A stretch of 5,538 nucleotides of DNA from Escherichia phage ID52, in sequence record NC_007825.1, one strand, 5' to 3'. Below are positions 4-5,538 of this stretch, piece by piece. The notes under the pieces were generated by a model, which did no database searches, was not told where the DNA came from, and saw nothing but the letters and a program-made list of their open reading frames with translations. Made by a program: the position numbers and the translations under genes. Each line of letters begins with the position of its first letter. The first letter of the stretch is position 1.

Positions 4-33
4 TTGACTAATACTCAATCACCACTCTAATAT
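4..33 (+). promoter_or_regulatory. Candidate sigma70 promoter upstream of gene A (pA-like)
   Basis: TTGACT at 4-9 and TAATAT at 28-33 separated by 18 nt, in the H-A spacer just upstream of A. Position matches the known pA location in phiX174-type phages. Sequence-only prediction. Confidence 0.45.
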
Positions 34-58
34 GCCTCCCATCAAACGGAGGCTTTTC
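34..58 (+). terminator. GC-rich hairpin plus T-run in H-A spacer (TH-like terminator/attenuator); stem includes the gene A Shine-Dalgarno
   Basis: GCCTCC (34-39) pairs perfectly with GGAGGC (48-53) around an 8-nt loop (40-47), followed by TTTT (54-57) and then the A start codon at 59. The 3' arm contains the GGAGG that serves as the A ribosome-binding site. Confidence 0.4.
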
Positions 59-1723
59 ATGTTTAAAACTCATTCTGACTACTTCAATAAACCAAACATC
101 GACGCAATCAAACCACTCGTCGAAACTGCTGGTATGTCTGTTCTTACTCAGTCTCCAAACCTCCGTATCTGGAAACAGTGCAATACTCGTATCAAACTTC
201 TTGAAGAAATCCTTGCTCATTATACGAATGGTATTCGCCGTGATGATAATGGTGACTTCTGGATGAATCCAAACTCTCAACTCGCAACCACTATTGCCTA
301 TCGTGCCCACCAAAAAGGCCACAATCCTAAATTCAAACAATACCCAGAGTCGTTTACTCTGGATGACATTATTACTGGCAAACCAATCCCTCAAACCGCC
401 CCTGACGAATTACAACTCTCCGATGAAATCGGTGAAGACTACCGTCTTACAGTCCTCTCCATAATCGAAGAACTGCAAGAATGTTACGATGTGCTCGGAC
501 AACTTGATATTAATAACACTATAGACCACAAACCCCTTGGTAATACTCACTGGGACTTACTCTATGAAAAACCCGTATACAAACATTGGACTCAACTCGT
601 TTCAAAACGACCCCTTAAAGATATCCGCGCCGATTACAACTATGCAAAGGCGAAGGGTATTAAGGATGAATGCTCAAAAATCTTGGAGGAATCTACTATG
701 AAGTCCCGTCGTGGATTTACCGTCCAAAGATTGATGAATGCTATGCGTACAGCCCATACTCAGGGCTGGTATGTGGTATTCGACACTCTTACCCTAGCCG
801 ATGACCGCTTAAAGGATTTCTATGATAATCCCAATGCTCTTCGTGACTACTTCCGTGGTATTGGTCGTATGGTTCTTACTGCCGAGGGTCGCTCGGTGCA
901 TGAGTCATCTGCCGACTGCTATCAGTATTTTTGTGTGCCAGAGTATGGTACACAGCACGGTCGTCTACATTTCCACGCAGTGCATCTTATGCGCACACTT
1001 CCTTTGGGTTCTCTGGACCCTAACTTCGGTAAGTTGGTACGCACTAATCGGCAAATAAATAGCTTGCAAAACACGTGGCCTTATGGTTACTCTATGCCCA
1101 TCGCAGTCCGGTACTCCCAAGATGCTTTCTCTCGTGCTGGCTGGCTCTGGCCTGTGGATGCAAAGGGTGAACCCCTTAAAGCTACCTCGTATATGGCTGT
1201 AGGCTTCTACGTTGCTAAATACGTTAATAAAAAATCAGATATTGACATGGCCGCAAAAGGCCTAGGGAATAAAGAATGGAACAATTCGCTCAAAACCAAA
1301 ATCAACCTCATACCCAAGAAGGTGTTCAGAATCCGAATGTCCCGCAACTTCGGAATGAAGCTACTCTCAATGGCTCACCTGTCAGCGGAAACTCTGATGG
1401 AACTGACCCAAGTGGGCTACGACGTGACCCCGTTCAACAACATCTTGAAGCAGAACGCCAAGAAAGAGCTCAAATCGAGGCTGGCAAAGAAATCTGTCGC
1501 AGACGTTTTGGAGGCGCAACCTGTGACGACCAATCTGCTAAAATTCATGCGCAATTTGACCCGAACAATCGGAGTGTCCAGCCTACAGAGTTTTATCGCT
1601 TCAATGACCACGAAATTATCAAGTACGGATATTTCTGATGAAACCAAAACTTACGTTGCTGATGCAGGAATTGCTGTTGCTAACTTACGAATTAAATCGA
1701 AGTGGACTGCTGGTGGAAAATGA
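59..1723 (+). CDS. A: Replication initiation protein A (HUH rolling-circle endonuclease)
   Basis: ORF 32..1723; preferred start is ATG 59, preceded by GGAGG (48-52) at 6-nt spacing, giving 554 aa. Strong recalled similarity to phiX174/G4 protein A along the whole length, including HFH (nt 968-976) and [10 protein letters not shown] with catalytic tyrosines (codons 1208-1210 and 1220-1222). Contains the origin sequence at 500-529. Confidence 0.92.
500..529 (+). other. Viral (+) strand rolling-circle origin; protein A nick site between G506 and A507
   Basis: Exact match to the conserved 30-nt Microviridae origin as I recall it, CAACTTGATATTAATAACACTATAGACCAC, located inside gene A and encoding ...[10 protein letters not shown]... 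Confidence 0.88.
698..1723 (+). CDS. A*: Protein A* (in-frame internal restart within A, C-terminal 341 aa)
   Basis: In-frame ATG at 698 (STM-KSRRGF...) at the position homologous to the phiX174 A* start; predicted 341 aa, the same length as phiX174 A*. Whether it is expressed cannot be read from sequence. Confidence 0.65.
1276..1638 (+). CDS. B: Internal scaffolding protein B (overprinted inside A in a different frame)
   Basis: 120-aa [11 protein letters not shown]...[10 protein letters not shown]...[15 protein letters not shown], matching recalled phiX174/G4 protein B, including the [10 protein letters not shown] motif and aromatic C-terminus. Stop TGA 1636-1638 overlaps the K start. Confidence 0.9.
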
Positions 1724-1808
1724 GGAAATTCAATCTCAACTTAAAAAACTCGAGGTCGTCTTACTTCGCAACCTTTCGCCATCATCTCAACGTGCTGGCA
1801 AAGACTGA
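1638..1808 (+). CDS. K: Protein K (small non-essential protein overlapping the end of A and start of C)
   Basis: Hand translation from ATG 1638 gives 56 aa: [56 protein letters not shown], stop TGA 1806-1808. Closely resembles phiX174 K (also 56 aa, ...[20 protein letters not shown]...). Below the length cutoff of the supplied ORF track. Confidence 0.85.
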
Positions 1809-1983
1809 CGCCCTTGACGAGGAGAAATACCTGAATATGCTAGGTGCTCTCCTTAAGGACTGGTTCCGGTACGAGGAACATTTCGTACATGGTAAACAAT
1901 CAATGCTTGACATATTGAAAGAGCGTGGCCTATTATCCACATCGCCAACTGACAATAATGTCCGTACTAACAAAGGAAACTGA
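1720..1983 (+). CDS. C: Protein C (DNA maturation; switch from dsDNA to ssDNA synthesis)
   Basis: ORF 1702..1983; preferred start is ATG 1720 within the ATGA overlap with the A stop (1721-1723), giving 87 aa: [21 protein letters not shown]...[12 protein letters not shown]...ILKERGLL, matching recalled phiX174/G4 protein C. Confidence 0.9.
1907..1936 (+). promoter_or_regulatory. Candidate sigma70 promoter inside gene C driving D-E-J-F-G-H (pD-like)
   Basis: Consensus -35 TTGACA at 1907-1912 and TATTAT at 1931-1936 with an 18-nt spacer, about 50 nt upstream of the D start. Position matches the known pD location inside gene C in phiX174-type phages. Confidence 0.5.
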
Positions 1984-1984
1984 A

Positions 1985-2443
1985 ATGTCTAAATCAAATG
2001 AGTCTGCTGTAGCTTTTCAAACTGCTATTGCTTCTATCAAGCTTATCCAAGCCTCTTCCGTTCTCGACTTGACCGAAGATGACTTCGACTTTTTAACTCG
2101 CGACCGTGTATGGATTGCTACCGACCGCTCACGTGCTCGCCGTGCTATCGAGGCCTGTGTATATGGAACGCTGGACTTTGTCGGGTATCCTCGCTTTCCT
2201 GCTCCTGTTGAGTTTATTGCTGCCGTCATTGCTTATTATGTTCATCCCGTCAACATTCAGACGGCCTGTCTTATCATGGAAGGTGCAGAGTTTACCGAAA
2301 ACATCGTTAATGGTGTCGAACGCCCTGTTAAGGCCTCCGAATTGTTCGCCTTTACTCTTCTCGTTCGTGCCGGAAACAAAGACCTTATTGGTCATGCCGA
2401 AACAAACATCCGTGAACAATTACGCGCTCAAGGAGTTATGTAA
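1985..2443 (+). CDS. D: External scaffolding protein D
   Basis: ATG 1985 preceded by AAGGA (1973-1977); 152 aa: MSKSNESAVAFQTAIASIKLIQAS...VYGTLDFVGYPRFPAPVEFIAAVIAYYVHPVNIQTACLIMEGAEFTEN..., near-identical over long stretches to recalled phiX174 protein D (152 aa). Confidence 0.95.
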   Translation: MSKSNESAVAFQTAIASIKLIQASSVLDLTEDDFDFLTRDRVWIATDRSRARRAIEACVYGTLDFVGYPRFPAPVEFIAAVIAYYVHPVNIQTACLIMEGAEFTENIVNGVERPVKASELFAFTLLVRAGNKDLIGHAETNIREQLRAQGVM

Positions 2444-2474
2444 TGAAAAAATCAATTCGCCGCTCCGGCGGTAA
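2163..2474 (+). CDS. E: Lysis protein E (MraY-inhibiting single-gene lysis protein, overprinted in D)
   Basis: ATG 2163 in a frame different from D; N-terminus MERWTLSGILAFLLLLSLLLPSLLIMFIPSTF matches the conserved transmembrane domain of phiX174 E. The frame stays open to TAA 2472-2474 (103 aa), past the D stop and into J. Confidence 0.8.
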   Translation: MERWTLSGILAFLLLLSLLLPSLLIMFIPSTFRRPVLSWKVQSLPKTSLMVSNALLRPPNCSPLLFSFVPETKTLLVMPKQTSVNNYALKELCNEKINSPLRR

Positions 2475-4524: not shown

Positions 4525-5538
4525 ATGCTTGGTTCTGTCGTTGGTGGTATCGCCTCCGCTCTTGCTGGAGGCCTTACAGGTAAATTATTTGGCGGCGGTC
4601 AGTCCGCCAATTCCACCGGAGTGCAAGGTAATATTCTTGCCTCTGACAACAATGTTATTGGTGCTAATGATGCTGGTATTAAATCTGCTATTCAGGGTTC
4701 TAGCCTCCCTAACTTTAAAGAGGCTGCCCCCTCTGCTATCTCTGGGATTCTTGCCGATTCTGGCAAGCATGCGCTCTCGTCTCTTACCAATGCTGGTACA
4801 AATAAACTCATGGAAGCTGTCGGCCTTTCTAAGTCTGCCTCTGATAAGGGCAAGGATACAAAAGACTATCTTGCCGCCGCATTCCCCGAGCTCAACGCAT
4901 GGGAGCGCGCAGGTGCTGGTGCTTCTGGTGCAGGCATGCAAGATGCTGGCTTCCAAAATCAGAAAGAGCTAACCAAGATGCAGCTTGACAATCAAAAGGA
5001 AATCGCTAAGATGCAGAACGAAACTCAGAAGGAAATCGCTGGGCTTCAATCTATCACTTCACGCGAAAATACTAAGGATGCTGTCTATGCTCAAAATGAA
5101 ATGCTCGCGTATAACCAAAAAGAGAGTATGTCACGCGTTGGCGCTATTCTCGAAAACACAAGCCTCACCAAACAACAACAAACTTCTGAAATTATGCGGC
5201 AGATGCTTACTCAGGCTCAGACCACGGGTCAGCATTTTACAAATGAGCAAATCAAGGAGCTTACGCGAAAAGTTGGCGCTGATATTGATGCTGTTCGTGC
5301 TAACACTGAACGCACCCATGTAGAAACTGACCGCTCAAAACAGGAGGTTCAAAACTCCCGTTACGCTTCCTCGCAGGTAGGCAAAACCGCTAAGGACGTT
5401 TCCAATGCAATTACTGATACAGCTAGTTCTATTGTTGATTATTTTCGTGGTGTTGATCAAAAAGTGGCAGACGTTTACAACAACTATTTCAAAGATGGCA
5501 AATCGAAAGGAATAGAATCCAATCACCGTTCCAAATAA
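4525..5538 (+). CDS. H: Minor spike / DNA pilot protein H
   Basis: 337-aa ORF, Gly/Ala-rich N-terminus ([10 protein letters not shown]...KLFGGGQ), central [18 protein letters not shown] and [23 protein letters not shown] coiled-coil region, matching recalled phiX174/G4 H. AAGGA at 4513-4517, 7 nt upstream of the ATG. Stop codon is the last 3 nt of the window. Confidence 0.95.

Follow-up and report, generated by a model that had tools for sequence, protein, structure and literature searches.

The site at positions 1907-1936 of the Escherichia phage ID52 genome is very probably the constitutive D promoter (pD) of a G4-type microvirus, read by the host sigma-70 RNA polymerase and located in the last third of gene C. 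In ID52, this assignment rests on the motif, on its orthology to pD of phiX174 and on conservation of the site beyond what the encoded protein needs. Single-base substitutions in the -35 hexamer of close relatives lower D/E transcript levels and postpone lysis; the start site and strength of the ID52 promoter are predicted.

In the mechanism that we propose, host sigma-70 RNA polymerase would bind TTGACA and TATTAT on the double-stranded replicative form, and transcription would begin ∼5-11 nt downstream of the -10 hexamer, inside the 3' end of C and near G1944. The transcript would carry a short unstructured leader followed by D, E and J, with F, G and H reached by read-through of partial terminators, and it would supplement read-through from upstream promoters. 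The Leu-Asp and Leu-Leu-Ser codons of C would be held fixed because the promoter site doubles as coding sequence.

Genome context and the promoter motif

The window, by which we mean the whole 5,538-nt stretch of record NC_007825.1 that was analysed, is the complete genome of a G4-type microvirus, because it begins and ends in the same register as the records of its circular relatives. A megablast comparison with phage records returned 372 that cover at least 80% of its length. The closest are Shigella phage vB_1081 (98.6%) and coliphage NC6 (98.2%), followed by ID12, WA6, ID8, ID11 and G4 at ∼93%, and the best-matching relatives all belong to Gequatrovirus G4 (Microviridae, Bullavirinae). Its genes follow the order A/A*/B/K/C/D/E/J/F/G/H. 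Gene C of the relatives is annotated at 1720..1974, and the ID52 gene is three codons longer because of a replacement at 1954-1970 that is described below. D and E of the relatives are annotated at 1976..2434 and 2154..2465, respectively, coordinates that match those of ID52 (Table 1) after a shift of +9.

Table 1. Coordinates of the D promoter and neighboring features in the ID52 window
Feature	Position	Strand	Basis	Remark
Gene C, 87 aa	1720..1983	+	ORF list and sequence	ATG 1720, TGA 1981-1983; carries the entire promoter
Promoter-like site TTGACG-16-TATGCT, 9/12	1814-1841	+		Inside C, 93 nt upstream of the D promoter; negative control
-35 hexamer TTGACA, 6/6	1907..1912	+	Sequence and consensus scan	Over C codons cTT GAC Ata
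Spacer TATTGAAAGAGCGTGGCC, 18 nt	1913..1930	+	Sequence and consensus scan	One above the 17-nt optimum
-10 hexamer TATTAT, 5/6	1931..1936	+	Sequence and consensus scan	Over C codons cTA TTA Tcc (Leu-Leu-Ser)
Predicted start zone	1941..1947	+	Inferred from phiX174 offset	Best guess G1944
17-nt segment AATAATGTCCGTACTAA	1954..1970	+	Alignments	Replaces 8 nt (GCAAACCA in vB_1081); 8 nt in every relative
Shine-Dalgarno-like AAGGA	1973..1977	+	Sequence	7 nt upstream of the D start codon
Gene D, external scaffolding protein	1985..2443	+	ORF list	First gene on the predicted pD transcript
Gene E, lysis	2163-2474	+	ORF list; ATG 2163 read in sequence	Nested within D

The original prediction described an exact -35 consensus and a -10 hexamer with one mismatch, separated by 18 nt, and a direct reading of the sequence and a consensus scan agree on all three elements. 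The promoter matches the consensus at 11 of 12 positions and is the sole 11/12 sigma-70 site on either strand of the genome. The -10 hexamer carries both of the bases that we looked for in a sigma-70 promoter, A2 and T6, and the spacer lies at the long end of the 17 ± 1 nt range; the scan found no TG extended -10 element at the 1931-1936 site. Reading the sequence also confirms that the promoter lies within the coding sequence of C, where the hexamers are embedded in the codons ATG CTT GAC ATA TTG AAA GAG CGT GGC CTA TTA TCC. Its distance from D, put at about 50 nt in the prediction, is 48 nt, counted between the last base of the -10 hexamer and the D start codon (1985).

We dropped a promoter claim based on the motif score alone: when the window was shuffled 2000 times with its dinucleotides preserved, 227 of the shuffled sequences had at least one match of 11/12 or more on one strand or the other with a spacer of 16-18 nt, so that the match by itself is not significant (p ∼0.11) for a 5.5-kb genome. 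The scan of ID52 found 12 sites matching at least 9/12 positions where 8.2 were expected, and most matches at this level are therefore noise. The above-chance status of 1907-1936 thus comes from conservation and from published mutant data, not from the consensus score.

Correspondence with the D promoter of related phages

To place the site among known promoters, we used a genome alignment of ID52 with vB_1081, NC6, ID12, ID8, ID11, G4, WA14, Lilleput and phiX174, in which both ID52 hexamers fall on invariant or near-invariant columns. The ID52 TTGACA aligns to TTGACA at 320-325 of phiX174 (Sinsheimervirus phiX174) and TATTAT aligns to TACTAT at 344-349, and the spacer between the phiX174 hexamers is also 18 nt. 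The phiX174 hexamers fall inside the regulatory feature 'Promoter D' annotated at 313-357 of MN385565.1, and an expression model lists phiX174 pD at 320..358, again enclosing both hexamers (PMC11527146). The two sites share a position in the last third of C just before D, an identical -35 hexamer, a -10 hexamer over the same Leu-Leu-Ser codons and a downstream D-E-J-F-G-H operon. The ID52 -10 hexamer is one base nearer the consensus (TATTAT versus TACTAT). The phages also differ in the interval from the -10 hexamer to the D start codon, which is 48 nt in ID52 and 40 nt in phiX174, and in the junction of the two genes: C and D do not overlap in ID52, whereas phiX174 C (133-393) overlaps D, which starts at 390.

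The original prediction had proposed the site as a candidate for pD, which it called the major late promoter, from its location in phiX174. The alignment supports the positional orthology with pD, but the word 'late' is a misnomer, because phages of the phiX174 type encode cis-acting regulatory sequences only (PMC3003669). The prediction had also proposed a comparison with the annotated pD of phiX174 and G4. The site does align with Promoter D of phiX174, but promoter features are absent from the G4-type GenBank records, including the original V00657.

The agreement with ID11 and G4 (Gequatrovirus G4) is closer still, with identical hexamers at 1907-1912 and 1931-1936 in the same gene context. 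ID52 differs from these phages at two spacer positions (1915, T versus C; 1923, G versus A), at one position just downstream of the -10 hexamer (1945, C versus T) and in the interval from the -10 hexamer to the D start codon, which the 1954-1970 replacement lengthens from the 39 nt of ID11 and G4.

The ID11 promoter has been characterized through experimental evolution, in which mutations 'at sites 1909-1935' were termed 'D-promoter' (PMC4958007). A mutation of this class arose in 62 of 68 wells (91%); the commonest were 1910aG (53/68 wells) and 1911cT (27/68), and all four of the mutations assayed, these two among them, delayed lysis (PMC4958007). We examined the hexamer sequence in three deposited ID11 clones, and the evolved clones KX266304 and KX266500 read TTGGCA (1910 A>G), as opposed to TTGACA in ID52 and wild-type ID11. 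In phiX174, the mutations A323G, C324T, G319T and T321C each significantly lower D-promoter transcripts in three hosts; A323G and C324T are the homologues of the ID11 changes, and T321C and C324T are silent in protein C (PMC3003669). The reduction of D transcripts in the phiX174 mutants has been put at 75-80% (PMC4958007).

These experiments also bear on the possibility that the site is a real but minor promoter, which only tops up a D-E-J-F-G-H message derived mostly from pA/pB read-through. Such a reading differs from a D promoter of major effect in degree, not in kind. It would fit the suboptimal 18-nt spacer and the phiX174 RNA-seq data, where transcription increases just 2.0-fold at pD over pB read-through and a further candidate promoter lies 157 bp upstream. 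It would also fit one study in which phiX174 pD gave no detectable signal in reporter plasmids and its activity could be recorded only with fragments made by PCR (PMC11527146), a difference which implies that the activity of phiX174 pD depends on sequence context. However, the fitted expression model ranks pD as the strongest promoter (PMC11527146), the phiX174 -35 mutants lose most of the D transcript (PMC3003669, PMC4958007), and the alteration of the site in 91% of the evolved ID11 wells implies a large phenotypic effect (PMC4958007). We regard a minor role as unlikely.

The ID52 site is thus the D promoter already described in phiX174 and already so named in ID11, and it is not new biology. 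The finding improves annotation, since the D promoter can be assigned with confidence to ID52 and to the G4-type records, in which no promoter is annotated, and it has little importance beyond annotation. It is a clear case in which the choice among synonymous codons inside a gene is dictated by a regulatory signal, and it advances no open question.

Conservation of the hexamers within gene C

We compared the site across 20 microvirus genomes whose gene C sequences were aligned by codon with the protein as guide: seven G4-type phages, ID2, WA14, Lilleput, Lilleen, three phiX174-type phages, five alpha3-type phages and Pectobacterium phage Mimer. The first five bases of the -35 hexamer, TTGAC, are invariant in all 20 genomes, including the third-codon positions 1908 and 1911. 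The hexamer ends with A in most genomes, with T in ID2 and with G in alpha3-group phages. At the -10 hexamer, the Leu-Leu-Ser codons read CTA TTA TCC in the G4-type phages and TTA CTA TCY in phiX174 and Lilleput. This reciprocal swap of Leu codons preserves TA..AT and alters just the third base of the hexamer, which is the least critical. The G4, ID2, WA14, Lilleput and phiX174 lineages all keep a spacer of 18 nt, although its sequence is variable.

The more distant genomes retain a recognizable version of the same site. In the alpha3 group (Alphatrevirus) and in Mimer, TTGAC lies over the same Leu-Asp codons and is followed by a TA...T hexamer. Counted on the sequences, the spacer is 17 nt in alpha3 and in Mimer. 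The alpha3 site reads TTGACG and TATCTT, other members of its group carry TACATT over the same codons, and the Mimer site combines TTGACA with a weak TACTCT. The alpha3 group and Mimer also have a longer untranslated gap before D than ID52 does.

The invariance of the hexamers extends to positions where protein C leaves the base free. Across the 14 G4/phiX/Lilleput-type genomes, 17 of the 78 third-codon positions of C are invariant overall, and all four that fall in the hexamers (1908, 1911, 1932 and 1935) are among them (hypergeometric P = 0.0017). Restricting the same 4/4 test to the part of C outside the region overlapped by K gives P = 0.0005. When the alpha3 group and Mimer are added to make up the full set of 20, only 3 of 63 third positions remain invariant, and two of these are 1908 and 1911 in the -35 hexamer (P ∼0.0015). 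The synonymous-site test involves only four positions in related sequences; shared ancestry touches both classes of position equally, because they are compared within a single alignment. The hexamers of 1907-1936 are therefore conserved beyond what protein C requires.

The promoter-like site at 1814-1841 served as a negative control. Its synonymous positions drift among relatives to give TTGATG, TCGACG and CATGCT, and its score in relatives is 7-8/12. We rejected this site as a rival promoter and attribute it to a chance match, because its synonymous positions vary freely.

The Leu codons CTA and TTA are rarely used in E. coli. The choice of Leu codons at 1930-1938 is set by the promoter and not by translation: CTA TTA is kept because it spells the -10 hexamer.

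It is very improbable that the site is conserved for some other reason, such as constraint on protein C, a requirement for particular, rare Leu codons, a reading frame that overlaps the site, or structure at the RNA or DNA level. An 11-residue peptide of C is conserved here, so that the protein would hold the first and second codon positions in any case, and mechanically called open reading frames overlap the region at 1782-1973 (-), 1853-1948 (-) and 1925-2443 (+). Protein constraint, however, explains neither the invariant third positions nor the compensating swap of Leu codons, and the synonymous changes T321C and C324T lower D transcripts in phiX174 (PMC3003669). As for the overlapping frames, the phiX174 annotation marks most of the open reading frames listed for the corresponding stretch as having been tested and found non-coding, ORF 20 and the opposite-strand ORF 57 among them. 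A structural explanation is disfavored by a search of the entire ID52 window against Rfam at gathering thresholds, which returned no RNA family, and by the region downstream, which folds no better than shuffled sequence.

A chance consensus match in AT-rich coding sequence, with no transcription start at the site, would accord with the shuffle frequency and with the predominance of noise among the sites of 9/12 or better, the 1814 site for example. It is just as improbable, given that the site has as its orthologue a promoter defined by experiment, that synonymous positions are frozen in the hexamers and drift elsewhere in C, and that one-base substitutions in this hexamer, which ID11 shares, undergo strong selection and postpone lysis in that phage. 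The D promoter shares with generic intragenic sigma-70 promoters of E. coli the two hexamers, the 16-18 nt spacing and the location in coding sequence. It differs in that generic intragenic matches are mostly unconserved noise, whereas the ID52 site is conserved and has mutant support in relatives.

Predicted transcript leader and other promoter-like sites

The start site of the D transcript has been mapped in phiX174, whereas in ID52 it is only predicted. The bounds given for phiX174 pD (320..358 and 313..357) place the start at G358, 9 nt after TACTAT. We take the phiX174 D message to begin pppGAUGC, which agrees with the phiX174 sequence from G358 to C362. The same 9-nt offset leads to C1945 in ID52, where the nearest purine is G1944, and from these two positions the ID52 start is predicted to lie near G1944, within 1941-1947. 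Given this offset, the window of about 10 nt downstream of 1936 in which the original prediction expected transcript 5' ends is only just wide enough.

The sequence AAAGGAA before D is kept in all G4-type relatives in the alignment. The predicted leader (1944-2010) folds no better than shuffled sequence, as do its counterparts in vB_1081 and phiX174. An unstructured leader would be consistent with an open ribosome-binding site, which would suit efficient translation of an abundant scaffolding protein.

Both the predicted leader and the C-terminal tail of C contain the 1954-1970 segment, and this 17-for-8 replacement accounts for the 9-nt difference in length between ID52 and both vB_1081 and NC6. 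It adds three residues to C and widens the interval between the -10 hexamer and the D start from 39 to 48 nt, which would extend the leader. The replacement also introduces a new ATG (1958) that shares the reading frame of D and lies 27 nt upstream of the normal start; no Shine-Dalgarno sequence or ribosome-binding site is evident for this ATG. The segment is absent from phage records, in which the best full-length match to 1925-1995 is 83%, it has no match in viral_contigs or metagenome_contigs, and there is no copy elsewhere in the ID52 window. A leader seen in no other sequence searched could conceivably retune D/E expression or the timing of lysis, an effect that we consider quite unlikely. 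If it did so, the replacement would parallel in nature the D-promoter mutations that were selected in the laboratory.

Two other promoter-like sites were noted in the window. The second-best in ID52 lies inside gene H at 4985-5012 (+) and reads TTGACA-16-TAAGAT (10/12). G4, ID2, WA14 and Lilleput (73-91% genome identity) carry the same two hexamers with a variable spacer between them, and the third-codon positions of the site are 4/4 invariant, compared with 37% in H overall (P ∼0.018). The site is not conserved in phiX174 or alpha3, and the phiX174 annotation has no promoter inside H. The H site may be an internal promoter restricted to the G4 clade, or it may be no more than conserved coding sequence.

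The second is a pA-like site at 4-33 (+), upstream of the start of gene A, in which TTGACT is followed by TCTAAT at 16 nt or by TAATAT at 18 nt; the -35 hexamer is kept in four relatives. Directly 3' of it, at 34-53 (+), is a terminator-like, G+C-rich hairpin with a T-run (GCCTCC...GGAGGC TTTT). The mechanically called open reading frame of gene A spans 32-1723 (+) and begins with the ATG at 32, whereas the G4-type records start A at 59. The earlier ATG, which falls inside the region of the pA-like -10 hexamer and the hairpin, is probably not used. Together, the pA-like site and the hairpin resemble the overlapping pA-T_H element of phiX174.
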